Shown piece after piece: positions 1,722 through 16,942 of a stretch of DNA of 16,978 nt (the first letter of the stretch is position 1; every line of letters begins with the position of its first letter). A program made the translations under genes and the position numbers. This stretch comes from a virus (lineage: Duplodnaviria; Heunggongvirae; Uroviricota; Caudoviricetes): IMG/VR virus record IMGVR_UViG_2778261643_000006, one strand, 5' to 3'. A model generated the notes under the pieces. That model searched no databases. It worked only from the letters and a program-made list of their open reading frames with translations, and was not told where the DNA came from.

Positions 1722-1745
1722 AAAAAAGCCCCGAATAACCGGGGC
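1722..1745 (-). terminator. Rho-independent terminator downstream of the major tail gene
   Basis: On the minus strand: GCCCCG-GTTATT-CGGGGC hairpin followed by TTTTTT, between the V-like stop (1766) and the G-like start (1708). Confidence 0.6.
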
Positions 1746-3507: not shown

Positions 3508-3783
3508 TTACTCAATAAAGATCATTGGCTTACCGTTAAAGCGTTCATGCCGTGTGACCGTCCAATGTTGTCCGTCATAAACAACGCGATCCCCGCGCCG
3601 TGGGCGGTATCCCGAAGAAAACACCACCAGAGAGACCGCAGGTCCGGACAGAGCATTCAGCTCTGCCAGTGTTTCTCCCGGGATCACAGTCATATCGACA
3701 TCATTAATCGAGGCTGTCTTTCCCATCTTTCTGACCGTGATCGCATCCATACGCGCTGCCAGCCGGGAAAAGGGATCAGACAT
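3508..3783 (-). CDS. Head-tail attachment protein (lambda gpFII-like)
   Basis: 91 aa; MSDPFSRLAARMDAITVRKMGKTASI...PRRGDRVVYDGQHWTVTRH parallels lambda FII (MADFDNLFDAAIARADETIRGYMGTSATI...LRRGDTLTIGEENFWVDRV). Position between head and tail genes. Confidence 0.7.
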   Translation of the reverse strand: MSDPFSRLAARMDAITVRKMGKTASINDVDMTVIPGETLAELNALSGPAVSLVVFSSGYRPRRGDRVVYDGQHWTVTRHERFNGKPMIFIE

Positions 3784-4099
3784 TGAGTTTTACCGGCACT
3801 TCTTCTGCACTGGTTCCGGCATCTGCCCAGACAACCCCGACCAGCGGATCAGAGCCGCTGTTAGTCAGCTGAACTTTTCCGGACTTCAGATAAACCTTCT
3901 TACCCGTTTTCATGTCATCCGTTTTCAGCTTAGGCAGCATAAACACACCTTCGGTCAGGACGTCGCCTGTTTCACCCTGTGGAATATCGGTCAGCGCCAC
4001 CGCAAAAACATCACCCACCTGCACCAGGTCTCCGCTGCTGATGGCTGCACTGGCAACAATCGCCACCGTTTTTCCTTCTTCTACAAAATTCTTTGCCAT
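3776..4099 (-). CDS. Small head-associated protein, DUF2190-like (putative decoration or capsid accessory protein)
   Basis: Translation from MAKNFVEEGKTVAIVASAAISSGDLVQVGDVFAVALTDIPQGETGDVLTEGVFMLPK... has the Gly/Val-rich pattern of DUF2190 proteins found next to major capsid genes. Start re-assigned to ATG 4097-4099 with GGAG upstream; the track start at 4144 lies inside the capsid terminator. Confidence 0.55.
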   Translation of the reverse strand: MAKNFVEEGKTVAIVASAAISSGDLVQVGDVFAVALTDIPQGETGDVLTEGVFMLPKLKTDDMKTGKKVYLKSGKVQLTNSGSDPLVGVVWADAGTSAEEVPVKLNV

Positions 4100-4140
4100 A
4101 ACTGTCTCCGCACAGCCCCGTTCAGGGGCTGATTTCAGGT

Positions 4141-4161
4141 ACAAAAAAAGCCCTTACGGGC
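4141..4161 (-). terminator. Rho-independent terminator downstream of the major capsid ORF
   Basis: On the minus strand: GCCC-GTAA-GGGC hairpin followed by TTTTTTTGT, between the capsid stop (4186) and the next start (4099). Confidence 0.65.
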
Positions 4162-4185
4162 CATCAGAATTGTTGTCTGCGACGT

Positions 4186-6213
4186 TTACGCCGTACATTT
4201 CACCAGACCGCGGTGATCAACTGGCGCGACACCGGCGTCAATACGCACTTTCGTTGTCACGCCATCCACACTGAAGCCCTCCATCTGATCAATATATGGC
4301 GTATCCACACCGTTGAGATAAGCCACTTCAATCGTATCGGAGCCTTTTGACGCAGCCAGGTAGAAGGTGGTCTGGCTGTTATCATCAAGACGAGGCTCTG
4401 CAATAACGGTCGCAAAATCTTTCACCGGGTTAATAATACCGGCGTTAATGTCAGCCCCCTTGACACTTGAGGAGCGAATGACCTGGTTAGCAACAGACTC
4501 CATCGCCGTCGGTACCAGTACGAACGCAGGACGAATATTCAGATGACGCTCCCCCTCTTTCTGAACGCGCATCAACTGGCGGGCTTTATCCAGCGATGCC
4601 ACGTCCATTGCAGCGCTCTCCAGTACGTTTGCATGTTTCGCTTTATCGAACAGACTTACATTATCTGTGGAGATTTTCGGGTTAGACGTCAGAATGGCAT
4701 AAACCAGATCGGCAATGGTGGATTTCGCCGCACGGCCCAGTTTCATCGGGACATCGGTCAGCATATTCAGATCATCATTGATAATGGCCTGACGGGTGAT
4801 ACTGAACAGCTCGCCATAGGTCGCCAGTGCAATAGTGGCCTGTTTATCTCCGGTGGTGACGTATTTATATTCCGCCCCTTCACGCACCTGACGCAGAGCA
4901 CTGAAGCCACCCATACCCACACGATGGGCAATTTTAAAATCAGACAACTGACCTTTCCGCGTCCACTGTTCATAGGTTTCAGGGGCATCTTCCCAGCCCT
5001 GCAGAATGGCTTTGTTCGCAACATCCAGCAGAATATTACCGAAGTCAGACGTACTGTGTGTGAACGCCGCACCGACCATCTGCATCGGGTTATAACCGGA
5101 AACCCCAATACCCCGTTCAGTTAGTGACATACGGGCATATTCACGCAGGGTCATCCCGTTGTAGACATTATCACGTTCGGTTTTTTCAAATCCGGCACGC
5201 GCCATCAGCGCCTGGCGGATCCCGTCCCCCACAAAATTACCGTTACCGGCATAAATATGAGCCGGGGTATTTTTATTGGATGGCGTGGACTCGCGCCCCA
5301 TCTCGTTCAACAGCTTTTCACGGGCCTGCTCCAGCGAACATTCAGGATCGGCAAGACACTGGGCCTGCAGCATCTGATAACGCCCGCCAAACATGGCAAA
5401 CAGATCATTAATACCGTTTACACGCGCTTTTTGCTCTGCCAGTACCTGCGCACGGATACTGTTTTCATCCACCACGGGTGCTGCTGCCTGCACTGGCGTC
5501 CGGGAGGCTGCAGGTTCATCATCCTGTACGCGTGGAGCACTGTTGCGTGGCGGAGTAATCATGTTTCGAATGGATTCCGGCATCTTTTTAAATTCCTCTG
5601 TACGTTTTGACTGAATACATGCCATTGCCTTAACGGCTGGTGTCACCTGATCAGCAAATCCCTGTGCCAGACATTCGGCACCGGACATCCAGGTCTCATC
5701 CGCCAGCATGGCAGCAATTTCATCGGTGGTTTTCCCGGTTTTCTGTGCATAAGCGGGTAACAGAACCGCCTCAACTTTATCGAGCAGGTCGGCATAGGTG
5801 CGCATGTCCTCCGCATCACCGCCCGTAAAGCCAAATGGTTTATGAATCATCATGAAGGAGTTTTCCGGCATAATGACCGGGTTTCCCACCATCGCAATGA
5901 CCGACGCCATTGACGCCGCCACACCGTCGACATAAACGGTAATGGACGCACCATGTGTTTTCAGTGCATTAAAAATGGCGATGCCTTCAAAGACATCGCC
6001 ACCCGGTGAATTGATATGGAGATTAATGTGGGTGATATCGCCCAGTGCATTCAGATCACTGATAAACTGCTTCGCTGTAACACCCCAGAAACCAATCTCG
6101 TCATAAATATAAATATCCGCGTCACTCTGGTGACCAGCCTGCATCCTGAACCAGGAATTATTCTTCGGACTGGTCGTCGGTGTGCTGCGGCTACTGTCGT
6201 TTCGTTGCGGCAC
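4186..6213 (-). CDS. Prohead protease (ClpP/S49-like) - scaffold-like linker - major capsid protein fusion
   Basis: One uninterrupted ORF. N-terminal part (DIYIYDEIGFWG...INSPGGDVFEGIAIFNAL...ASMASVIAMVG...MIHKP) looks like a ClpP-like phage prohead protease. A charged, Ala/Gln-rich middle segment is scaffold-like. The C-terminal roughly 330 aa looks like a major capsid protein, of a family not recalled with certainty. Start proposed at GTG 6211-6213 (AAGGAGG 5 nt upstream), overlapping the portal 3' end as lambda C overlaps B; alternative ATG at 6144. Confidence 0.75.
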   Translation of the reverse strand: MPQRNDSSRSTPTTSPKNNSWFRMQAGHQSDADIYIYDEIGFWGVTAKQFISDLNALGDITHINLHINSPGGDVFEGIAIFNALKTHGASITVYVDGVAASMASVIAMVGNPVIMPENSFMMIHKPFGFTGGDAEDMRTYADLLDKVEAVLLPAYAQKTGKTTDEIAAMLADETWMSGAECLAQGFADQVTPAVKAMACIQSKRTEEFKKMPESIRNMITPPRNSAPRVQDDEPAASRTPVQAAAPVVDENSIRAQVLAEQKARVNGINDLFAMFGGRYQMLQAQCLADPECSLEQAREKLLNEMGRESTPSNKNTPAHIYAGNGNFVGDGIRQALMARAGFEKTERDNVYNGMTLREYARMSLTERGIGVSGYNPMQMVGAAFTHSTSDFGNILLDVANKAILQGWEDAPETYEQWTRKGQLSDFKIAHRVGMGGFSALRQVREGAEYKYVTTGDKQATIALATYGELFSITRQAIINDDLNMLTDVPMKLGRAAKSTIADLVYAILTSNPKISTDNVSLFDKAKHANVLESAAMDVASLDKARQLMRVQKEGERHLNIRPAFVLVPTAMESVANQVIRSSSVKGADINAGIINPVKDFATVIAEPRLDDNSQTTFYLAASKGSDTIEVAYLNGVDTPYIDQMEGFSVDGVTTKVRIDAGVAPVDHRGLVKCTA

Positions 6214-7666
6214 TGCTGCCTCCTTTATCACTGGCCGGATCGGTATCAAATACCAGATCCAGCTTGCGGTTTTCATCAATTTCGGCCTTGCGCCGACGTT
6301 TGACATCATCCGGATTACGACCACCTGCACGTACCCAGTCTGATTCTGTCGCCGCTCCACCACGAATCTGAATTTTCCAGGCCTCAGCCTCCTTAACAGG
6401 GTCAATCCACGGCATCACCGGTCCGGAATACACCGCGGTATACAGTGAAGAACGGTCAAGATCGCGGGGTAGCCTGATAACACCGGATGCCACAGCCTGT
6501 TTCAGCCAGGCACGATACATCGGGCGGGTGACGGCACCAATAAACCAGTCCTGCAGGATCAGGTAGCCATCAGTGGATTCAACCAGCTCCTGACGCTGGG
6601 CGCTGTAAGTGCCGTTATAGTTGCGTGCCGTACTGGAAAAACTCAGACGACTGCCCGCCGCCACGGCACGCAACTGACCATTACGAAAAGTTTCAAGGTT
6701 AGGATTGGGACGATCCGACTTCACCATTCCGATTTCTTCGCCGGGTTTCAGATCGTCGTAAATAATGCCTGGCTGAATGGTAAGCTCGCGTTCCTTATCC
6801 TTGCTGCCATTACCATCCGGTTCATAGCTCTGCCCGTCGCCTTTCCGGATGTACATCCCCAGAGCAGCGGCGATCCTTGCTGCAGTCAGCTCAGAATCTT
6901 CATACTCTTTCAGGGCACTGAGGCGGATCAGCACACCGGACAACAAAGACGTCCCGCGCATCTGGTGCAGACGGCGAACAAATTTAAGATGCAGCATTCG
7001 CTCTGCATCCACTTCTTTGGTTTCCATCTGCCGTCCGGATACGGGACGACTTTTATACACCAGATATTTTTCGGGACGCCCCCAGTCATCAACAAACACG
7101 CCCTGATTCAGCCTGTTGCTCTCATCACTGGTCATGGGAATAAAGTCCGGCTCGAGTGCCTCCAGCCAGAAATGAACACCGGCAGAAGGCGTCAGGCTGT
7201 TTATGCGCCCGGAAACCATCTGGGCAAACACCTCACCATCGCGCAGCCAGGTACGCAGCATCAGACGTTCCAGCATCGGACGGGTAAACTGCCCGGTGAC
7301 TTCCGGGCTGACAGACCATTCACTCCATCGGATGCGAATCTCCGCAGCCAGGTCACGGGCAATGGCCCCATTGCGTAATACCGGATGTGGCTCGACAATA
7401 ATCCCGTTTTTCCCCACCACCCGTTCTTCCAGCTTGTCAAATACACCAATGACCAGATCGTGGTTGTTATCAAGGTAACGGGCCTGCTCACGTAACGACA
7501 CGGCCCCGTACTGGCTTAACTGGTCGGCAGTTCGGTTTTCCCGCCGGGCTTTGTGTGTCCGCGTCGTTTTTACGGCCTCATAAGCCTGGATCACCGCACG
7601 GGAACGCAGCCTTGCCGCTTTCCATCCTGGTGAAAAAACGCCAATCACATCATCAAGAATTGCCAT
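6191..7666 (-). CDS. Portal protein (lambda gpB family)
   Basis: About 490 aa ORF between terminase and capsid genes, with portal-like composition and position. Start re-assigned to ATG 7664-7666 (MAILDDVIGVFSPGWKAARL...), which overlaps the W-like stop as TGATG. Confidence 0.88.
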   Translation of the reverse strand: MAILDDVIGVFSPGWKAARLRSRAVIQAYEAVKTTRTHKARRENRTADQLSQYGAVSLREQARYLDNNHDLVIGVFDKLEERVVGKNGIIVEPHPVLRNGAIARDLAAEIRIRWSEWSVSPEVTGQFTRPMLERLMLRTWLRDGEVFAQMVSGRINSLTPSAGVHFWLEALEPDFIPMTSDESNRLNQGVFVDDWGRPEKYLVYKSRPVSGRQMETKEVDAERMLHLKFVRRLHQMRGTSLLSGVLIRLSALKEYEDSELTAARIAAALGMYIRKGDGQSYEPDGNGSKDKERELTIQPGIIYDDLKPGEEIGMVKSDRPNPNLETFRNGQLRAVAAGSRLSFSSTARNYNGTYSAQRQELVESTDGYLILQDWFIGAVTRPMYRAWLKQAVASGVIRLPRDLDRSSLYTAVYSGPVMPWIDPVKEAEAWKIQIRGGAATESDWVRAGGRNPDDVKRRRKAEIDENRKLDLVFDTDPASDKGGSSAATKRQ

Positions 7667-7878
7667 CAGAACCTCGCCAGCCGGTACCCGGGATGCCCCC
7701 GTCGTCGTGTAATCAGAGCCGCAAGGCGGCGCTCCCACTCCTGCCGCCCCTGCCGGATCTCAGATAAGTTTTCCATGGTCATCTGCTGACCATTAAAGGT
7801 GACGGATTTTCCGTCCAGCACCGCCATTTCAGCTTCCGTATAACGCTGAATCATGGCTTCGATATCATTCTGGTTCAT
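7666..7878 (-). CDS. Head-tail joining protein (lambda gpW-like)
   Basis: About 70 aa with C-terminal ...ITRRRGHPGYRLARF, resembling the lambda gpW C-terminus (...TQRRRGPAGFYV). Start at ATG 7876-7878 with GGAGG 6 nt upstream, overlapping the terminase stop as ATGA. Confidence 0.75.
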   Translation of the reverse strand: MNQNDIEAMIQRYTEAEMAVLDGKSVTFNGQQMTMENLSEIRQGRQEWERRLAALITRRRGHPGYRLARF

Positions 7879-9974
7879 AACCATCCTCCGGAAGTCAGCC
7901 AGGGGTTAACATCGTCAGTTACTGTTTTCTTCCGTTTTTGTTTTTTAACAGGCGTGGATACCGGTTCCGGTGTGGGTGACGGTTCGGTACTGTCCGGGAC
8001 ACACTCCAGCCAGGTTTCCCGGCTCGCCCACTCCGGTGCATCCGGCCAGCGGATCTTTTCGTATCCATGCAGAATGACCAGAGCCTCGGCATACACCATC
8101 AGGTCAAAAGCTTCGTTGGCACCGCGACCTGGCTTACTCCATTTCCCGTCACTGCTCCGCTCTTCATACGTCAGTTCGTCGTAAAACCAACTCCCCAGCC
8201 AGTCAGGGAAATGCACATAGCCGGGACCTGGCGAGTCACGCCATAACGCGTTATTCACCCGGTCTTTCAGTGCATCCGTCTGAAGAAGCCAGAGCGGCAC
8301 ATCACCTGCGGCCTGCGCCCGTCGGCCCGTTCGTCCGGTGTTATCAGGGAATGTACGGGTGATCAGTTTTGCGCGCCGGATGCTGTCGCCCTTAAACAGG
8401 TAAATACGTTTACCAAGGCCATCACGACGGCAACGACGCCAGAATTTATAGGCATTATCAGTGACCCCGTCTTCACCGCCGGAGTCCACCGCCATTGCCA
8501 TCAGTCGCATTTGTTGAGAAGGATCGGAGGCCAGCGGCCAGCTTTTATGAAAAACATCCGTCAGCAGGACATCCCAGTCTTCCGGATAGCTGGCCGGATC
8601 AATTCGCTGGCTCTCCCCGTCGCTGTCACCGCGCAATGACTGCGTGATGTTGTAACGATCAATAATCCAGCGTTCGCCACGGCTGCCATAGCCCGTTACC
8701 TGAACCACAAAACGGCGATGACGTCCCGCCTGCACATCCACTGTCGCCACAAGGAAATTAATGCCATCCGGCACACTGCGGGAAGGAACTGGCTCTGCCC
8801 GCTGCTCAAGCAGTTCACTTTTTCGTTGCTCCATGCTGGCACGAGGAAGATAAGGCAATCCCCAGTCGGTGTTGATAACCGCCCTGAGTGTTTCTTCGCT
8901 TCCTGTCGCTTCATACTCCTGTTCTGCAGTCAGTAATTTGTAAACCAGTTGCGCCCAGGTCTGATACGCAGCAGCTGGCCCTTCCATCCAGAAACTGGCG
9001 ATACGGGAGCGGCGCGGTTCACCGGAAACGTTGCCGTTACGATCAATGACCTGACCTTCACGCAACCAGACTCCTGCACTATTGAGCTCACGCTTTTTCT
9101 CCGCAGTGATAATGCCGCTGCAGTGCGGGCAAAGTAGATACGCCGCCTCACTGGCTTTAAAGGGATCCGGTTCATTACGGTAGCCGGTCATGGCATCCAT
9201 GGCTGGCTGAAAATATTCACCGCAGTGCGGACATGACCAGTACCAGCGGCGGCGGTCACCACGATTGTAAAGGGAAAGAATACCAGTCGTCGGTGGCGCT
9301 TCATGAGGCGACTTACGTCGCCATTTGCTGTCGCAGATGTCACGTCCCGGCGAGCTCTCCACCAGAGTCATCCCGGCGGACATAAATGTGGTGGTACGTT
9401 TTGAGGCCAGGGAGAAACCATCACCCTCGCTGTCGATATTCTCCGGAAAACGGTCGTAATCGGTTAAGGCGACAAACCGGTAATCCGACGACGACATAAT
9501 GTTGACCGAGGGCCAACCAATTTTAAGGAACGAGCCATCCCTGAACGTCTTATCATGGACATTATTGTCGTTACGACGTGGACTCATTCTTTTCTTTACC
9601 GCCGCACTGCTTCTGAACGTTCTGTCGAGGCGCTTTTTAGAATGCTCGCGGGCCTTATCTTCGGTCATCTGCACAACGAGCATGTCCGAAGGATCGCAAA
9701 CGATGGTATAGACAATCCATCCATCGATCAGACCAATGGTCTTCCCTGTTCGCGCAGGACCAACAAAAATCACCGCATCGTATTCACGCGATGCCAGGCA
9801 GTTCATGGGCTCAATGATGTAGGGTGTCAGTTCAGGATCCCATGGCACCGAGTTACCAGCCCCCTTGGGAACACGCATGAATTTTTTAACAGCCTCCGAA
9901 ATCGGCATGCGACGTGGTGGGGAAAATCCTGCCGATATGTCCCTTCCCAAATTTCGGGCTGATGAAAAACCCAT
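7875..9974 (-). CDS. Terminase large subunit (lambda gpA-like)
   Basis: 699 aa. N-terminal ATPase region with Walker A-like VGPARTGKT, paired Cys motifs (CPHCGEYF...CPHCSG) and a C-terminal nuclease region, in the arrangement of lambda gpA. ATG 9972-9974 is preceded by GGAGG directly after the Nu1-like stop. Confidence 0.92.
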   Translation of the reverse strand: MGFSSARNLGRDISAGFSPPRRMPISEAVKKFMRVPKGAGNSVPWDPELTPYIIEPMNCLASREYDAVIFVGPARTGKTIGLIDGWIVYTIVCDPSDMLVVQMTEDKAREHSKKRLDRTFRSSAAVKKRMSPRRNDNNVHDKTFRDGSFLKIGWPSVNIMSSSDYRFVALTDYDRFPENIDSEGDGFSLASKRTTTFMSAGMTLVESSPGRDICDSKWRRKSPHEAPPTTGILSLYNRGDRRRWYWSCPHCGEYFQPAMDAMTGYRNEPDPFKASEAAYLLCPHCSGIITAEKKRELNSAGVWLREGQVIDRNGNVSGEPRRSRIASFWMEGPAAAYQTWAQLVYKLLTAEQEYEATGSEETLRAVINTDWGLPYLPRASMEQRKSELLEQRAEPVPSRSVPDGINFLVATVDVQAGRHRRFVVQVTGYGSRGERWIIDRYNITQSLRGDSDGESQRIDPASYPEDWDVLLTDVFHKSWPLASDPSQQMRLMAMAVDSGGEDGVTDNAYKFWRRCRRDGLGKRIYLFKGDSIRRAKLITRTFPDNTGRTGRRAQAAGDVPLWLLQTDALKDRVNNALWRDSPGPGYVHFPDWLGSWFYDELTYEERSSDGKWSKPGRGANEAFDLMVYAEALVILHGYEKIRWPDAPEWASRETWLECVPDSTEPSPTPEPVSTPVKKQKRKKTVTDDVNPWLTSGGWL

Positions 9975-9982
9975 TATTCCTC

Positions 9983-10510
9983 CTAGAGACTCTCTCCTTC
10001 CTCATCAGGAATTAATTCAGCAGCACAAGCCTCGTAGGATTTTTCCTGAAGAGTGTATCGCAGGTCATCAATTGCCTGCTGTACAACGCCGACGGCCTGA
10101 GGAGTCAGGGCGCAATCGCGTTCAAGAACATCCGGAATTGTCTCCAGAACCTGGACGACAGCCTTTCTCATGGACGAATAGACGATGACTACTTCATCAA
10201 CGGGGATGAGTTTTCGCTGCTCCTTTTCCAGCTTGATCCTTTCATTTTCAGACTGGTACCAGTCCTTTCTCTCTTTCGGCTCCATACGGGATGGATCATG
10301 AACAGAGTCTGCTGCCTCATGCTTCACACTAAACAGGGCTGGCCCGACATGCTGCAGGGCGTAAACGGGGTTCCCCCTGACAGTCGCAGCCACAGGAGTG
10401 TTGGCCGCGAGACGCCGTTTTTTTACTGTGTCCCGGTGAAGCCCAAAGGCCTCAGCGATTTTAAAAACACTCCAGTAATAAGCATCACCGATCCCGCTCA
10501 CATTTGACAT
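9983..10510 (-). CDS. Terminase small subunit (lambda Nu1-like)
   Basis: N-terminal helix-turn-helix-like region (YYWSVFKIAEAFGLHRDTVKKR) and ERKDWYQSENERIKLEKEQRKL parallel lambda Nu1 (KWYAERDAEIENEKLRREVEEL). Sits directly upstream of the large subunit. Start re-assigned to ATG 10508-10510 (GGAG upstream). Confidence 0.75.
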   Translation of the reverse strand: MSNVSGIGDAYYWSVFKIAEAFGLHRDTVKKRRLAANTPVAATVRGNPVYALQHVGPALFSVKHEAADSVHDPSRMEPKERKDWYQSENERIKLEKEQRKLIPVDEVVIVYSSMRKAVVQVLETIPDVLERDCALTPQAVGVVQQAIDDLRYTLQEKSYEACAAELIPDEEGESL

Positions 10511-10539
10511 AAGCAACTCCATCTGGCAGGTGAAAATCA

Positions 10540-10734
10540 TGTTTATTTATATATTTCAATTAATTGTAAACTGATCTAATGACAGGGAGAAAAAAATATT
10601 GTACAGGTAAAAAGAGAAATAACTTTTAATTATCAATAAATTACCAAACATGCTGCCGCCGCCATGGAAATGCAAAAACTAGCCTTTTTCCGCGACGCTC
10701 CCGCCCCGTGGCAGGGGCCCCCACCGGGAGGACC
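10540..10734 (-). other. Putative cos region (cosN-like core near 10690-10710, cosB-like AT-rich segment toward Nu1)
   Basis: Minus strand reads CACGGGGCGGGAGCGTCGCGGAAAAAGG, closely parallel to lambda cosN and flanks (TTACGGGGCGGCGACCTCGCGGGTTTTCGC), followed by an AT-rich segment before the Nu1-like start, as in lambda. Confidence 0.45.
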
Positions 10735-10783
10735 CGACAGCCTGACAGCCTGACAGCCTGACAGCCTGACAGCCGTGACGAGC
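10735..10783. repeat. Direct tandem repeat of the octamer CTGACAGC (4 perfect copies with degenerate flanking copies)
   Basis: Read directly: cgacagc ctgacagc ctgacagc ctgacagc ctgacagc cgtgacgagc. Units are head-to-tail with no spacers. Located on the upstream (cosQ) side of the cosN-like core. Confidence 0.9.
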
Positions 10784-10910
10784 ATCTGATACAGCGCTTT
10801 ACATAATGGCATAGGAATAATTCAGAAGGACATCACAGCATGCCCACACAAATTAGTGTGAGTGTCCTGTTTCTTCCTACGCACAGGACTGACGAGCATG
10901 AGGGGAAAAT

Positions 10911-11078
10911 ATGCGAACCATAAATGCCTCATCTTCAGCAATGCAGCCGGCATCCGAACAGGACGATATTGTAAATTCACCTAATTACGAGGACATTGCA
11001 GTAGTTGAATTGCAGCTCTGTATTAGCCTGACAGTGACAGAATGCGATATTGACTCTGTCACAGGTGAAATAGTTTGA
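10911..11078 (+). CDS. Hypothetical small acidic protein (55 aa)
   Basis: ATG at 10911 preceded by GAGGGGAAAAT; translation MRTINASSSAMQPASEQDDIVNSPNYEDIAVVELQLCISLTVTECDIDSVTGEIV. Below the ORF-track size cutoff. Convergent with the 68-aa ORF. Confidence 0.35.
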   Translation: MRTINASSSAMQPASEQDDIVNSPNYEDIAVVELQLCISLTVTECDIDSVTGEIV

Positions 11079-11098
11079 ATGATTAGCAGTTATGGTGC

Positions 11099-11305
11099 TC
11101 AGTCAACCACCAGGGAATAATCCTTCGAATTCTTATCGTGCTTCACCAACGCTGCCTCAATTGCCCTGAATGCTTCCAGAGACACCTGATGTTCTATACA
11201 TGCAATTACAACATCCGGGTAACTCATAGAAATGGTGCTATTAAGCATATTTTTTACACGAATCAGATCCAACGAGAGTTCATCAGCAGATTGTTCTTTA
11301 TTCAT
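11099..11305 (-). CDS. Hypothetical small protein (68 aa)
   Basis: ATG 11303-11305 with GGAG upstream; protein-like composition ([68 protein letters not shown]). The antisense track ORF 11138-11344 is Cys/His/Arg/Phe-rich and looks spurious. Confidence 0.5.
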
Positions 11306-11605
11306 TTTGTCGCTCCATGCGTTTGCTCGTCATCTAGCGGTTAAAATATTACTTCAAATCTTACTGCATAAAAGAGGAAAAGTATGAAAGTTTGAGTACA
11401 TCGACCTTACATACATCTGTCGGTTGCATATCCCTCCTGGATGCCAGCAAGGCTCAATTTTGTTACGCAATCAACACTATTCATTAAAAACAGGCTTAAT
11501 ATTTGACATAAATCATCAACAAAACACAAAGAGGTCAGACCAGATTGAAACAATAAACACGATAATGCAAACTACGCGCCATCGTATCACATGGAAGGTT
11601 TACCA

Positions 11606-12016
11606 ATGGCTCAGGCTGCCATTTTTAAAGAAATATTCGATCAAGTGCGTAAAGATTTAAACTGTGAATTATTTTATTCTGAGCTAAAACGTCACAATAT
11701 CTCACTTTATATTTACTATTTAGCCACAGATAATATTCACATTGTGTTAGAAAACGACAACATAGTGTTAGTAAAAGGACTCAAAAAGGTTGTAAATGTT
11801 AAATTCTCCAGAAACAAACATCTTATAGAGACCTCCTATAATAAGTTGAAATCAAAAGAAATCACATTTCAACAATACAGGGAAAATCTTGCTAAAGCAG
11901 GAGTTTTCCGATGGGTTACAAATATCCAGGAACACCAAAGATATTACTATGCCTTTGATAACTCATTACTATTTACTGAAAGCATCCAGAAAACTACACA
12001 GATCTTACCACGCTAA
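11606..12016 (+). CDS. DUF1398-family protein (YdfO/YbcV-like), 136 aa
   Basis: ATG 11606 preceded by GGAAGG; translation [51 protein letters not shown].... Length and position (between cos/terminase and gnsB) match K-12 Qin ydfO as recalled; the family assignment is from memory. Confidence 0.65.
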
Positions 12017-12024
12017 ACCATAAC

Positions 12025-12053
12025 GTCCGGCTTCTCTCACTCCTGAGCCGGAC
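12025..12053 (+). terminator. Hairpin downstream of the YdfO-like gene (possible weak terminator)
   Basis: GTCCGGCT - 13-nt loop - AGCCGGAC, followed by TGCATTGGTTT; the U-tract is weak. Confidence 0.3.
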
Positions 12054-12104
12054 TGCATTGGTTTAATAAAAACCATCAACAATTGTGATTTAGATATTCG
12101 GAAC

Positions 12105-12140
12105 CATTCAAATATAACAAAACCCCGTAAAAACGAGGTT
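12105..12140 (-). terminator. Putative Rho-independent terminator downstream of the gnsB-like gene
   Basis: On the minus strand: AACCTCG-TTTTTA-CGGGGTT imperfect hairpin followed by TTGTTATATTTG. Confidence 0.4.
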
Positions 12141-12167
12141 TATGGATAAATTTTATTATTGAATACA

Positions 12168-12344
12168 TCAGATTAAATTAATCTTGACATCATAGCTTTC
12201 AAGACCCGTCATTTTTTCCCGTGCGGTAAACTGAATACTGGTAACTTCTTTCCCGGTCTTTTTCTTAAGTTCAATAATTTTTTTTGTTATATATTCAGAA
12301 ATATCTGCTTCTGCTTTTGTTTTTAAGTTTTCAATATTCATCAT
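12168..12344 (-). CDS. gnsB: GnsA/GnsB-family small protein (58 aa)
   Basis: Not in the ORF track (under 60 aa). Translation MMNIENLKTKAEADISEYITKKIIELKKKTGKEVTSIQFTAREKMTGLESYDVKINLI matches the GnsA/GnsB family. AAGAGGAA precedes ATG 12342-12344. Confidence 0.8.
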   Translation of the reverse strand: MMNIENLKTKAEADISEYITKKIIELKKKTGKEVTSIQFTAREKMTGLESYDVKINLI

Positions 12345-12389
12345 TTCCTCTTTTAGTCTGTTATGACTTTCCAGTTACACAGTAAGTCG

Positions 12390-12420
12390 ATTATATGGTG
12401 CAAACGTGTAAAAGATAAGA
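12390..12420 (-). promoter_or_regulatory. Candidate sigma70 promoter for the gnsB-like gene (perfect -10 TATAAT, weak -35)
   Basis: Minus strand TATAAT at 12395-12390, about 45 nt upstream of the gnsB-like ATG; best -35 at 17-nt spacing is TTATCT. Confidence 0.3.
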
Positions 12421-12512
12421 TGAAACATCGCAATAATCAACATACGATAGTCTAAATTTTACACAAACAGACAAAGAGAATTTTCCTGAATTATCAATAC
12501 AATAGCATCAAA

Positions 12513-12743
12513 TCAACTCAAGAGCCTTATTGCTGCTTCCAGAATTTCTTCTGAAGTAACATGTCGATCCGCGGCTACATAAATGACTTTATGATCTCCG
12601 GTCAGAGATGGAAACCCTGCGGCCATTACAGTAAGGTGTGTTTTTTCGCCATTTGGATATTCACGCATGATGGTGTTAACTCCAGTCATCGCTGGCACTA
12701 CCACTGCTGGTTCAGAGTTAAAAAAAACTATGATTTTTTTCAT
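12513..12743 (-). CDS. Small protein, YnfN-like by position (76 aa from ATG)
   Basis: Translation MKKIIVFFNSEPAVVVPAMTGVNTIMREYPNGEKTHLTVMAAGFPSLTGDHKVIYVAADRHVTSEEILEAAIRLLS. The track ORF begins at an upstream TTG; ATG at 12741-12743 chosen, with weak SD. The gene between gnsB and cspI in K-12 Qin is ynfN; the sequence itself was not recognised. Confidence 0.6.
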   Translation of the reverse strand: MKKIIVFFNSEPAVVVPAMTGVNTIMREYPNGEKTHLTVMAAGFPSLTGDHKVIYVAADRHVTSEEILEAAIRLLS

Positions 12744-12785
12744 GATGTTACCGTAGTATGTGAGTATCCATCGAATAGATACCAA

Positions 12786-12807
12786 GCAAAAAAGCTCCCG
12801 AAGGAGC
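12786..12807 (-). terminator. Rho-independent terminator downstream of cspI
   Basis: On the minus strand: GCTCC-TTCG-GGAGC hairpin followed by TTTTTTG, about 200 nt downstream of the cspI stop. Confidence 0.6.
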
Positions 12808-13014
12808 CTTCATTTTCACTTTTTTAAATCCAACGACAGACGGCTGGCATTTAAGTATTGTGAAATATTATCAAATGTAATCATCATTGATTTACAAAAG
12901 ATACATTTTGCCCCGAAAGGATTCATGTCAGAAACATCAAAAGATGATGTTCTATACTGGGAACCATGACAACACGGGCATCTAAAGTGAATATGGTTTG
13001 TAATATTGTCTACC

Positions 13015-13227
13015 TCAAAGCGCCACTACATGAACAGCGGCAGGACCTTTAGGTCCGTTCTCAATACCAAATTCAACTTCCTGATTCTCAGTTAATGTTT
13101 TGAAATCGTTGCTCTGAATTGCTGAGAAATGGACAAACACATCTTTGCTGCCATCTTTCGGCGTGATGAAACCAAAACCTTTTTCAGGGTTAAACCATTT
13201 CACTAAACCAGTCATTTTGTTAGACAT
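13015..13227 (-). CDS. cspI: Cold-shock protein CspI (CspA family)
   Basis: 70 aa, [70 protein letters not shown], with canonical cold-shock RNP motifs (KGFGFI, VFVHF). Matches K-12 Qin CspI as recalled. Confidence 0.9.
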
Positions 13228-13323
13228 AATTATTACCTTTTGAAGAAATTAGCCCTTGGGCAGAATGGTCCGAAAAAAAATATCAGAGAGAAAAACCAAC
13301 AAGGAAATCTCAAGAGGTACAAA

Positions 13324-13345
13324 TAATAAAATTATAACAATGACT
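13324..13345 (-). promoter_or_regulatory. Candidate extended -10 promoter (TGtTATAAT) for cspI
   Basis: Minus strand TG-T-TATAAT at 13339-13331, about 100 nt upstream of the cspI ATG within an AT-rich leader region. No convincing -35. Confidence 0.3.
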
Positions 13346-13590
13346 GCTTCAGATAAATTTGTAACAAACCAGAACACCATTAACGCATGATTAACCACCC
13401 ATAGCAAGGATTACTTTTGTAAAGAAAAACACAGCAATGAAAGAATAGCTTTATTTATTAATAATAACGTGTCATTCTGATTAAGACCTTTTATCTTACC
13501 CTTAAGATTTCAGGAATTTTGGCTCATGGAAGAGTCCTTTTTATTTAAATTTTACATTCCGCGATGTAAATGTTCCGATTTAATATTACC

Positions 13591-14614
<1,024 letters not shown>

Positions 14615-14618
<4 letters not shown>

Positions 14619-14926
14619 ATATATTTATGATGAGGACGCTCGTGCTTATTGGCAGGATTTTCAATCTTAAAGGAGTACTGATGCTGCAGATAAGACTCAA
14701 CTTTTTCTGACAATTTTTCTGCTACTTCCAGGAAGACTTGCCGGACGCTCCTTCTGGCTGCTGCCTCATAAAACTCCAGCGCAGCTCCTTCAACACGGTC
14801 CATGGCGACATCCAGGTCAAAAATTTCACCGTCAAAGCGTTCTTTGTCCTGTAAGGCTACAGTTACCGTAACTTTATTCTCAAAATTACGGACTCCTTTC
14901 ACAACCAGTTCATAGTCTTGAGTCAT
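14615..14926 (-). CDS. YdfR-like protein of unknown function (103 aa), inside the lysis cassette
   Basis: ATG 14924-14926 is 5 nt after the holin stop, with AGGAG inside the holin 3' end; its stop overlaps the endolysin ATG as ATGA. Length and position match K-12 Qin ydfR as recalled. No recognisable catalytic motif or hydrophobic segment. Confidence 0.7.
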
Positions 14927-14930
14927 TGGA

Positions 14931-15146
14931 TTACTCTCCTCTCGCAGCCTTACGCCTGTCTTCTTTAATCTTGAAATAAAGATTTGTCAGATACGTCAGC
15001 AGGCCAAAAACCAGGCTACCCAGCACACCGATTGCAGCCCACTGTGACGGAGTTACTTTATCGAGTAACTGCAATGCCCAGAAACCAGCATTACCCGCCG
15101 ATGTGCCATAGGCAACACCTGTTGTTAACTTATCCATTGATTTCAT
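14931..15146 (-). CDS. Class II holin / pinholin (phage 21 S21-like) with dual-start motif
   Basis: From [71 protein letters not shown] (71 aa), near-identical in pattern to P21 S21 with its Met-Lys-Ser-Met dual start. The track ORF has a 25-aa N-terminal extension, rejected. Coordinates are from ORF-track arithmetic; my base counting near 15060 was off by one. Confidence 0.85.
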
Positions 15147-15365
15147 ATCCTCACCCCGATGTACACGGATGGTGCAATATGTTTGAAAAGATCGGAGTCT
15201 ACGGGGTAGTTTTGACAGCACACGCTGTTCTCAACGGCGCTAAAGAAACATACACATTAAAAATGTGAGTAATTATTTTGAAAGAAAGTCATATATAAAA
15301 TAATAATACGAGAAATGTTTTCATATTTAGTGTACTGTATACGGCCATTTATACAGGAAAAGCCT

Positions 15366-15899: not shown

Positions 15900-16115
15900 T
15901 TAATCAGTAATGATGACATTTGCTGCTGCAGGACCTTTAGCACCACTCTCTATAGAGAAGGTAACCTTTTGACCTTCAAATAAGGTTCGATAATTATCAT
16001 TCTGAATCGCAGAAAAATGCACAAACACATCTTTACTACCATCAACAGGAGAAATAAAGCCGAAACCTTTATCAGCGTTAAACCATTTTACTAAACCAGT
16101 CATTTTATTTGACAT
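15900..16115 (-). CDS. cspB: Cold-shock protein CspB (CspA family)
   Basis: 71 aa, [71 protein letters not shown]. Divergent from cspF as in K-12 Qin. Confidence 0.9.
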
Positions 16116-16415: not shown

Positions 16416-16616
16416 TTGTCCCGTAAAATGACAGGAATTGTCAAAACCTTTGACGGCAAAAGCGGCAAGGGTCTTATCACCCCATCCGATGGTCGTATCG
16501 ATGTCCAGCTTCATGTTTCAGCGCTCAATCTCCGCGATGCAGAAGAAATTACCACCGGATTACGCGTGGAATTTTGCCGGATAAATGGTCTGCGTGGCCC
16601 TTCAGCTGCCAGGTGA
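16416..16616 (+). CDS. cspF: Cold-shock-like protein CspF, 3' end interrupted by IS1 (last codons and stop supplied by the IS1 terminus)
   Basis: TTG start at 16416 with TAAGGAA 5 nt upstream; [27 protein letters not shown]...[16 protein letters not shown]. The ORF stops at TGA 16614-16616, inside the IS1 left end beginning at 16612 (GCC AGG TGA). CspA-family proteins normally extend a few residues past GPxAA. Confidence 0.75.
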
Positions 16617-16666: not shown

Positions 16667-16942
16667 GTGGCTTCTGTTTCTATCAGCTGTCCCTCCTGTT
16701 CAGCTACTGACGGGGTGGTGCGTAACGGCAAAAGCACCGCCGGACATCAGCGCTATCTCTGCTCTCACTGCCGTAAAACATGGCAACTGCAGTTCACTTA
16801 CACCGCTTCTCAACCCGGTACGCACCAGAAAATCATTGATATGGCCATGAATGGCGTTGGATGCCGGGCAACAGCCCGCATTATGGGCGTTGGCCTCAAC
16901 ACGATTTTACGTCACTTAAAAAACTCAGGCCGCAGTCGGTAA
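16667..16942 (+). CDS. insA: IS1 InsA (transposition regulator; upstream frame of the InsAB' transposase)
   Basis: 91 aa, [91 protein letters not shown], matching IS1 InsA. Confidence 0.95.
16918..16924 (+). other. IS1 A6C programmed -1 frameshift motif (InsA to InsAB')
   Basis: AAAAAAC within TTAAAAAACTC near the 3' end of insA, at the position of the known IS1 frameshift site. Confidence 0.8.

Follow-up and report, generated by a model that had tools for sequence, protein, structure and literature searches.

Some tailed phages appear to place prohead protease, scaffold and major capsid protein in a single gene, which raises the question of how one ORF could supply both an enzyme and the shell that encloses it, and whether it does so through one product or two. 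The locus considered here lies in a 16,978-nucleotide stretch of DNA from a virus of the Caudoviricetes (IMG/VR record IMGVR_UViG_2778261643_000006), hereafter the window; its features are collected in Table 1. The ORF is best read as a standard member of the NF045540 family in a lambdoid siphophage head module that most likely, at a moderate level of confidence, also supports a second in-frame initiation at ATG 5583. The original prediction described the gene as encoding one polyprotein. As a statement about the ORF, which is single and continuous, this stands; as a statement about the product it is probably incomplete, because the conserved ATG 5583 likely also gives a protease-less scaffold-capsid protein.

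Table 1. Features of the fusion gene and its surroundings (positions in the window; aa, residues of the 675-aa protein)
Feature	Position	Strand	Details
Full fusion ORF: ClpP-like prohead protease / scaffold / major capsid	4186..6213	(-)	675 aa, 73.4 kDa; GTG start, TAA stop at 4186-4188; RefSeq has the same CDS, WP_001136599.1
Shine-Dalgarno AGGAGG	6219..6224	(-)	5 nt upstream of GTG 6213
ClpP-fold serine protease domain (predicted)	5641..6123	(-)	Pfam aa 31-191; structure model aa 22-192
Catalytic codons (predicted)	5911-5913; 5842-5844; 5695-5697	(-)	Ser101; His124; Glu173
Candidate internal translation initiation region GAGGAATTTAAAAAGATG	5581..5598	(-)	ATG 5583 = Met211
Predicted nested product			aa 211-675; 465 aa, 50.7 kDa
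Hypervariable P/A/Q-rich linker, predicted disordered	5473..5553	(-)	aa 221-247; pLDDT <50
Helical scaffold-like (delta-domain-like) segment	5104..5466	(-)	aa 250-370; structure model
Major capsid protein domain, Mu gpT / Phage_capsid_4 type	4189..5103	(-)	aa 371-675, 33.1 kDa
Intrinsic-terminator-like hairpin GGCCC-GTAA-GGGC, then T7	4143..4162	(-)	24 nt after fusion stop
Head decoration / cement protein gene (DUF2190, Phage_cement_2)	3776..4099	(-)	Next gene downstream
Portal gene (lambda family), longest ORF	6191..7738	(-)	3' end overlaps fusion-gene start

The fusion ORF is an ordinary, already named prophage gene, and its design is not new. The protein scores 984.9 bits against NCBIfam NF045540 (scaf_prot_MCP1, 'ClpP-like prohead protease/major capsid protein fusion protein'; cutoff 475), with residues 32-674 matching profile positions 2-651 of 652, and PHROG 133 matches it end to end. 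The gene is 99% identical to its counterparts in the isolated phages mEp460, cdtI, phi458, Tritos and Ayreon, and 2125 of 5426 complete E. coli genomes (~39%) carry the PGAP product name of the fusion. Homologues (92% and 73%) are found in Salmonella, and the downstream gene matches Pfam 'Gifsy-2', both in line with the link to Gifsy-2-type head modules drawn earlier. The proteins mEp460 gp05, cdtI gp05 and WP_001136599.1 are 99-100% identical to that of the window, with equal length, domains and downstream terminator, and records of the mEp460/cdtI type have the gene order in common (portal, fusion, decoration, FII-like, Z, U, V). Existing records of the family do not agree on the start, which for mEp460 is the ATG equivalent of 6144; they name the gene variously as protease, Nu3 or major head protein, and never annotate an internal start.

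A single gene for protease, scaffold and major capsid protein has been proposed for Pseudomonas phage MD8 (gp5, 693 aa) and MD8-like phages (PMC8508860). Like the window gene, MD8 gp5 belongs to a lambdoid genome and joins a ClpP-like protease to a capsid nearest Mu gpT; unlike it, MD8 gp5 comes from another host, is distant in sequence and was described in a bioinformatics-only paper in which one product is assumed (PMC8508860). Protease-scaffold-capsid fusions of actinobacteriophages (Microbacterium cluster EE, Arthrobacter AN/AX/FE and Gordonia CW/DM) resemble it in layout, with three functions in one gene, and occur in small genomes of phages with Gram-positive hosts (PMC7302621). In the literature searched, neither experimental work on this fusion or its internal start nor direct evidence of translation from ATG 5583 was found. 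The new point is not the fusion itself, which is of little import as a curated family already named by annotation pipelines, but comparative sequence evidence for an internal start that would give a protease-less scaffold-capsid protein.

The continuity of the ORF, on which the original prediction of a protease, a scaffold-like middle and a capsid in one reading frame depended, is well established. Pfam finds both terminal domains, and the ORF is uninterrupted at 100% identity in other E. coli chromosomes. Relatives had been named as the place to look for a splitting stop or frameshift; there the ORF stays fused down to 35% identity, appearing as one full-length match in more than 100 clusters at 35-60% identity. 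A Pfam domain search of the module recovered no second capsid gene between the portal and tail genes. The length estimated earlier, about 675-740 aa, likewise agrees with two forms of the ORF, 675 aa from GTG 6213 and 739 aa from TTG 6405 (4186..6405, minus strand).

Whether translation begins at GTG 6213 or ATG 6144 had been left undecided, and the comparison of homologues settles the matter in favor of GTG 6213. A start codon occurs at the aligned column in 38 of 40 non-redundant homologues, where the median Shine-Dalgarno duplex energy is -11.6 kcal/mol, and in the window the codon falls within the portal ORF, 23 nt before its 3' end (portal stop 6191-6193). ATG 6144 is present in only 23 of the 40 and lacks a Shine-Dalgarno motif (median energy -2.7), and the RNA around it is folded (-12.4). 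The GTG is the start given by RefSeq and by most records. Starts at TTG 6405 or upstream ATGs are unsupported, the region being the 3' end of the portal gene in another frame. Within the gene, Met137 (ATG 5805) was rejected as an internal start: only 2 nt separate its GGAGG from the ATG, the GGAGG is part of the codons for the conserved GGDAEDM motif, and the RNA there is folded.

The N-terminal region, earlier taken for a protease, matches Pfam CLP_protease (PF00574) over aa 31-191 at 2.9e-36. Ser101 and His124 are each kept in 113 of 114 homologues, and at position 173, 99 of them have Glu and 9 have Asp. The Peptidase S14 (ClpP) fold and a triad at the ClpP positions, here Ser-His-Glu, mark the domain as a predicted protease. 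The linker that follows differs in length across the fusion family, and its amino-acid identity to a 78%-identical homologue drops to 25-55%. Beyond it, the model contains helices at 250-273, 280-288, 294-308, 327-339 and 356-365 (pLDDT 75-88), with R264 conserved; from position and analogy, aa 250-370 would function as a scaffold. The middle part had been called a charged linker, a description that needs replacing: charged residues make up 24-29% there, with a net charge of about 0, versus 17-22% elsewhere in the protein, and the segment consists of a P/A/Q/S/T-rich disordered linker and then helices.

The C-terminal domain is, by sequence profile, a capsid domain of the Mu gpT-type, HK97-fold kind. 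Pfam Phage_capsid_4 (PF25209) matches aa 377-672 at 6.6e-55 and PF10124 at 4.1e-08. The assignment is based on profile-to-PDB sequence matches, to the solved capsid chains 8rkx/8rkc (4e-12) and 9jod (1.6e-11), and on structural matches to predicted viral major capsid proteins in BFVD (TM 0.70, E 1.6e-13). Among the PDB fold matches listed for the full-length model there is no solved capsid, because ClpP and crotonase matches fill the ranks. A first structure model, built from an alignment of 75-100% identical sequences, reached a pLDDT of 36 and was replaced by one from a 54-sequence alignment, which is of only moderate confidence (pLDDT 74.6); the low-confidence stretch at aa 425-458 is probably the E-loop. 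The terminator originally placed directly after the ORF is recovered as a predicted hairpin and T7 (4162..4143) with a 5-bp stem (GGCCC/GGGCC), a GUAA loop and U7 directly after it, annotated in the mEp460 record as a rho-independent terminator. Transcription of a Q-antiterminated late operon may continue past it.

Several features of the sequence point to initiation at ATG 5583, between protease domain and linker. In the window's clade (50-100% identity), all 40 distinct haplotypes have ATG211, and the AGGA 10 nt 5' of it is kept in each of them although the encoded amino acids change. A Shine-Dalgarno core at -15..-5 accompanies ATG211 in 40/40, versus 2.6% of 925 other in-frame ATGs. These counts overstate the number of independent events because the homologues are related. 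At the codon level, codon 206 encodes E, Q or K and yet has G as its third base in 39 of 39 sequences (GAG, CAG, AAG); among the 46 columns that can be compared, it is the most extreme. Synonymous diversity reaches its lowest value in the whole gene over codons 199-207 (0.63 of expectation; gene mean 1.00, sd 0.09). The 50-nt segment around ATG 5583 has a folding energy of -1.4 kcal/mol, versus a gene mean of -10.5, and falls within the 0.9% of windows with the least structure. A distant clade offers a parallel: a lone ATG lies within the hypervariable linker in 24 of 26 genes, each of the 24 with GGAG, GAGG or AGGA 5-15 nt upstream, versus 4.9% of 531 other in-frame ATGs (Mann-Whitney p = 2e-12).

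Other points speak against initiation at this site. The motif before ATG 5583 is short (AGGA, -6.0 kcal/mol) and 10 nt away, in contrast to the perfect AGGAGG of the 5' start. Met211 directly precedes a Pro212 that is near-invariant family-wide, distant clades have Ala, Val or Ile at position 211, and the two residues could be conserved for protein reasons. Part of the conservation near Met211 may also come from mosaic recombination blocks. High nucleotide identity near Met211 in one pairwise comparison was set aside in favor of the multi-sequence codon tests, since identity along the gene is patchy and mosaic.

The foremost alternative is that the gene yields only the 73-kDa chain, so that each subunit carries its own protease and scaffold, trimmed after assembly, and the conserved AGGA...ATG follows from constraints on the protein or survives from an ancestral junction between genes. 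This deserves serious consideration, even if it appears rather unlikely. It accords with the 5' start having by far the strongest Shine-Dalgarno motif, with the single CDS in all database annotations and with the literature on MD8 gp5 and on the actinophage fusions, where one product is assumed; the resulting prohead fill of 35-61% would be dense, yet physically possible. However, a single product leaves unexplained the invariant third-position G of codon 206 across E, Q and K, the drop in synonymous diversity, to the lowest level in the gene, immediately 5' of ATG211, the exceptional lack of RNA folding at ATG 5583, and the Shine-Dalgarno motif and ATG that are relocated, and still conserved, in the hypervariable linker of distant clades.

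The internal motif could instead pause elongation, allowing the protease to fold before the scaffold emerges, with no initiation involved. Its location just past the end of the protease domain would suit such a role, as would a second Shine-Dalgarno-like motif, the GGAGG that precedes Met137 by 2 nt, a spacing that makes initiation unlikely on steric grounds. Yet a pause needs no ATG fixed 6-10 nt downstream, and one clade has that ATG without exception, the other in 24/26 genes; nor does a pause predict an unstructured RNA window. Pausing by Shine-Dalgarno-like sequences is itself disputed, and this explanation seems highly improbable. A more radical possibility, that a sequencing error or frameshift merged separate protease and capsid genes or that the locus is a dead prophage remnant, is already effectively refuted. 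Frame errors do occur at this locus, as singleton database entries with portal, protease and capsid merged into 1159-aa proteins indicate, but thousands of independent assemblies, and plaque-forming phages as well, contain the identical 675-aa ORF, the architecture is fused down to 35% identity, and the module contains no other capsid gene.

Taken with the linker Shine-Dalgarno/ATG pairs of distant relatives, the marks of initiation at ATG 5583 make it probable that the fusion gene works as a nested pair like lambda C/Nu3. Translation from GTG 6213 gives the 73-kDa chain, in which a ClpP-fold Ser-His-Glu protease is joined through a flexible linker to a helical scaffold segment and a Mu gpT-type capsid domain, whereas ATG 5583 (Met211) would give a 51-kDa scaffold-capsid chain without protease, the equivalent of HK97 gp5 with its delta domain. 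Both chains would co-assemble on the portal via their capsid domains, and in this way the fused chains would presumably bring the protease into the prohead. There the enclosed protease would digest everything N-terminal of about residue 370, in its own chain and in its neighbors, so that the capsid domain would be released autoproteolytically; the remaining ~33 kDa capsid protein would expand, bind the decoration protein and fill with DNA. Use of the internal start, the product ratio and the cleavage sites are all inferred here, as is a T=7 geometry of the capsid. Packing estimates are in favor of the scheme: 415 full-length chains would place 16.8 MDa inside the prohead (35-61% of its volume) and 415 nested chains 7.3 MDa (15-26%), and rough estimates of our own put the fill of HK97 and P22 procapsids at ~21-22%. 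For the family as a whole, it is reasonably probable, judging from the sequence comparisons, that the 'fusion', its copies in ~39% of complete E. coli genomes included, is a nested pair in which the internal site (Met211 or a linker ATG) makes the bulk capsid subunit and the full-length chain is a minority, self-targeting protease.

Nested protease and scaffold genes are known from lambda (C/Nu3), Mu (I/Z) and HSV-1 (UL26/UL26.5), where an in-frame start past the protease domain yields an abundant protease-less scaffold beside a rarer protease-scaffold chain. The lambda protease belongs to a family other than ClpP. HK97 offers a second comparison, since the predicted nested product (linker, helices and capsid domain) has the layout of a delta-domain capsid protein such as gp5, from which the HK97 protease removes the N-terminal part after assembly. 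The HK97 delta domain is 102 aa long versus ~160 aa in the window protein, and its protease, gp4, is encoded by a separate gene and has another fold family, whereas that of the window is fused. In the archaeal virus HFTV1, Ribo-seq identified a nested protease/scaffold gene (gp17/gp17.5; bioRxiv 10.64898/2026.09.13.751334). In lambda (E), Mu (T), HSV-1 and HFTV1 the capsid protein is a separate gene, in contrast to the nested product predicted here, which includes the capsid domain; with Mu, the window gene nevertheless shares a capsid domain of the gpT type.

If true, the proposal would extend the logic of lambda C/Nu3 and herpesvirus UL26/UL26.5 to a nested product that contains the capsid protein, and would add a third layout to the protease/scaffold nesting of tailed phages, archaeal viruses and herpesviruses. 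A real nested start would explain how few protease copies and hundreds of capsid subunits come from one ORF, and would provide a tractable E. coli system (mEp460, phi458 or the ATCC 25922 prophage) for protease targeting into proheads. There is also value for annotation: many records say only 'head maturation protease', 'Nu3' or 'protease/scaffold', some with a wrong start, and phages whose gene is labelled in this way then seem to have no capsid gene. One sequence, P0228 (468 aa), resembles a free-standing scaffold-capsid gene and was rejected as such, being a contig-end truncation of the fused ORF; its gene call uses the Met211-equivalent start.

The protease-scaffold-capsid ORF of the original prediction is accurate, and the gene it describes is well catalogued and, therefore, already known. 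The fusion protein scores 984.9 bits against NCBIfam NF045540 (cutoff 475; short name 'scaf_prot_MCP1'), whose product name, 'ClpP-like prohead protease/major capsid protein fusion protein', is also the RefSeq name of the E. coli copies, and it matches PHROG 133 end to end. Its DNA is 98.5-99.3% identical to that of the isolated phages phi458, mEp460, cdtI, Tritos, Ayreon, and HannyBb, and 78% identical to that of Stx phages. Of 5426 complete E. coli genomes, 2125 carry the gene, some in as many as six copies. When 1.84 billion cluster representatives were searched exhaustively, 7149 reached E <= 1e-30; the best of them include more than 100 proteins of 640-700 aa that align, at 35-60% identity, in a single stretch over residues about 20-672. 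The proposed check of related genomes for a splitting stop or frameshift is thereby answered in favor of one continuous ORF, and the alignments argue that the fusion is old and stable, excluding an assembly error. Phage records name the gene variously as head maturation protease, Nu3, protease C, major head protein, or protease/scaffold.

The gene order given by Pfam and PHROG matches identifies the window as late-region DNA from a lambdoid siphophage or prophage, read on the minus strand (see table). [quoted passage not shown] Pfam places CLP_protease at aa 31-191 (2.9e-36) and Phage_capsid_4 at aa 377-672 (6.6e-55), with a weaker additional match to Mu-like_gpT. In an alignment of 114 full-length relatives, Ser101 and His124 are each kept in 113, and position 173, which aligns with ClpP Asp171, is kept as Glu/Asp. 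An AlphaFold2 model built from 54 diverse homologues (mean pLDDT 74.6) has a confident ClpP-fold domain (aa 22-192), two short helices (203-219), a disordered linker (221-247), helices at 250-273, 280-288, 294-308, 327-339, and 356-365, and a C-terminal alpha/beta domain. Although originally called charged, the middle part has no unusual charge; a variable tether rich in proline and alanine leads into helices, as expected of a scaffold or delta domain, from which we infer a scaffold function. A profile of the C-terminal 375 residues matches the solved capsid chains 8rkx/8rkc ('Bacteriophage Mu GpT domain-containing protein', 4e-12) and 9jod ('Major capsid protein', 1.6e-11), and the model matches predicted viral major capsid proteins (TM 0.70). 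Because ClpP and crotonase-superfamily chains filled the listed ranks of PDB fold searches with the model, no direct match to a solved capsid appears among them. The mature capsid protein should start at about residues 340-385, which is where the Mu-type capsid proteins encoded by separate genes have their N-termini.

The reading frame is open from TTG 6405 (739 aa), and the choice of start between GTG 6213 (675 aa) and ATG 6144 favors the former. AGGAGG lies 5 nt upstream of GTG 6213, which overlaps the portal gene's 3' end by 23 nt; among 40 non-redundant homologues, 38 have GTG/ATG at this column or an adjacent one, and at the GTG-6213 column itself the median anti-Shine-Dalgarno duplex energy is -11.6 kcal/mol. 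ATG 6144 is kept in only 23/40 (median -2.7), and the RNA there is folded. The RefSeq CDS is exactly 6213..4186; the mEp460 record starts the gene at ATG instead, probably a mis-annotation. The fusion frame continues open for 64 codons upstream of GTG 6213, within the portal gene (6191-6405). Public databases hold singleton 1159-aa 'portal + ClpP + capsid' proteins (P0003, P0006-P0010, and others), for which 1-nt indel errors in this portal 3' end are the simplest explanation.

A candidate source of a second product is an internal start at Met211 (ATG 5583). In the window's own clade (50-100% identity), the linker lacks Met, whereas Met211 is invariant in 40/40 distinct haplotypes and is followed by a near-invariant Pro212. 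AGGA always lies 10 nt before this ATG, contributed by codons 206-207 (xAG GAx). Although position 206 may be Glu, Gln, or Lys, the third base of its codon is G in 39/39, the most extreme bias among 46 comparable columns (other Glu columns have 9-30% GAG); the sole exception is Gly-Asp (GGA GAT) after A, which yields AGGAGA. Among 16 conserved Met columns, the motif occurs at column 211 only. Synonymous diversity reaches its gene-wide minimum at codons 199-207 (0.63-0.68 of expectation; gene mean 1.00, sd 0.09), and the RNA folding energy of the 50 nt surrounding ATG 5583 is -1.4 kcal/mol (gene average -10.5, sd 3.8), within the least structured 0.9% of windows. Judged from sequence, signals in this combination typically indicate a translation initiation region that lies within coding sequence. 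A strongly conserved, Shine-Dalgarno-like GGAGG also lies 2 nt before in-frame ATG 5805 (Met137) in the protease domain (5805-5820, minus strand). Its bases belong to the codons of a conserved GGDAEDM motif, and with a spacing too short for initiation it is probably incidental.

At the nucleotide level, the internal start was tested on the DNA of 80 + 80 related viral loci. In distant relatives, the alignment shows a lone Met, after residues rich in Glu/Gly/Lys, within a linker that is hypervariable elsewhere. At 35-55% identity, 24/26 genes have a single in-frame linker ATG, and all 24 carry GGAG, GAGG, or AGGA at -15..-5 (e.g., CACCAGGAGGGTAATATG and TTAAAGGAGACTCCTATG), a motif found at only 4.9% of 531 other in-frame ATGs (Mann-Whitney p = 2e-12).

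On this evidence, a second, nested product (aa 211-675, 50.7 kDa) that would lack the protease and keep the linker, helices, and capsid domain is reasonably probable. That the ORF yields a single product is a less favored but serious possibility: the Shine-Dalgarno match near Met211 is short and far from the ATG, the Met-Pro pair may be kept for protein-level reasons, and the counts come from homologue sequences that are not independent. Two products have established analogues in lambda C/Nu3, Mu I/Z, and HSV-1 UL26/UL26.5. A further pair, HFTV1 gp17/17.5, was recently shown by Ribo-seq (bioRxiv 10.64898/2026.09.13.751334). By analogy with these pairs, the fusion ORF would supply a capsid subunit bearing the protease and a scaffold-capsid subunit without it; the two would co-assemble via their capsid domains, and fusion to the capsid subunit would guarantee enclosure of the protease in the prohead. 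A rough volume check, for T=7 and inner radii of 20-24 nm, supports the idea that most subunits need to be of a lighter kind: the prohead interior would hold 16.8 MDa (35-61% fill) with 415 full-length chains, and 7.3 MDa (15-26%) with 415 nested chains. By our own estimates, HK97 and P22 procapsids are filled to about 21-22%.

The protease-scaffold-capsid design is already described, and several actinobacteriophage clusters share it (PMC7302621). In the literature searched, we found no experimental study of the enterobacterial fusion protein. The gene itself is known, and the putative conserved internal start, which would vary an expression scheme known from other viruses, is the only element that might be new.

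Annotated features of the late region and neighboring blocks
Feature	Coordinates	Strand	Block or basis
Small terminase, DUF1441 type	9983..10540	-	Pfam/PHROG
Large terminase	7875..9974	-	Pfam/PHROG
Small head-tail gene	7666..7884	-	Pfam/PHROG
Portal, lambda family	6191..7738	-	Pfam/PHROG
Fusion ORF	4186..6213	-	Pfam/PHROG
Decoration/cement protein	3776..4099	-	Pfam/PHROG
FII-like gene, Gifsy-2 family	3508..3783	-	Pfam/PHROG
Tail genes Z, U, V, G	after FII-like gene	-	Pfam/PHROG
DUF1398	11591..12016	+	low-GC block
GnsA/GnsB toxin	12168..12344	-	low-GC block
Cold-shock protein	13015..13227	-	low-GC block
Unassigned small ORFs	11099..11305, 12513..12785		low-GC block
P21-type holin	14931..15221	-	lysis cassette
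DUF1327	14615..14926	-	lysis cassette
Phage lysozyme	14085..14618	-	lysis cassette
Rz-like DUF2514 gene	13591..14088	-	lysis cassette
Embedded Rz1-like ORF, other frame	13641..13913		lysis cassette

The terminator originally placed after the fusion gene corresponds to a real terminator-like hairpin, GGCCC-GUAA-GGGC then U7 (4162..4143, minus strand), which is annotated in mEp460. A stronger terminator-like hairpin, GCCCCGG-TTAT-TCGGGGC then T6 (1745..1728, minus strand; T-run to about 1722), directly follows major tail gene V and mirrors it, so that the two lie 3' of the two most abundant structural genes. Both putative terminators may adjust transcript amounts or shield 3' ends in the antiterminated late operon. 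Another hairpin of 7 bp, CAGCCCC-TGAAC-GGGGCTG (4097-4130, minus strand), lacks a T-run and separates the putative fusion-gene terminator from the GGAG ribosome-binding site that precedes the decoration gene. Records name the decoration gene 'membrane protein' and the FII-like gene 'DNA breaking-rejoining protein'; the Pfam description of the latter is 'ATP-binding sugar transporter'.

Between the lysis genes and the terminase, a low-GC block (10600-13500; 33-37% vs about 54% in structural genes) holds Qin-prophage-like cargo, and the lysis cassette occupies 13591-15221 (minus strand). At the window edge, 15900-16115 (-), 16416-16616 (+), and 16667-16942 (+) hold two further ORFs that look CspA-family cold-shock-like on visual inspection of their translations, together with an IS1 InsA gene, called by Pfam matches.
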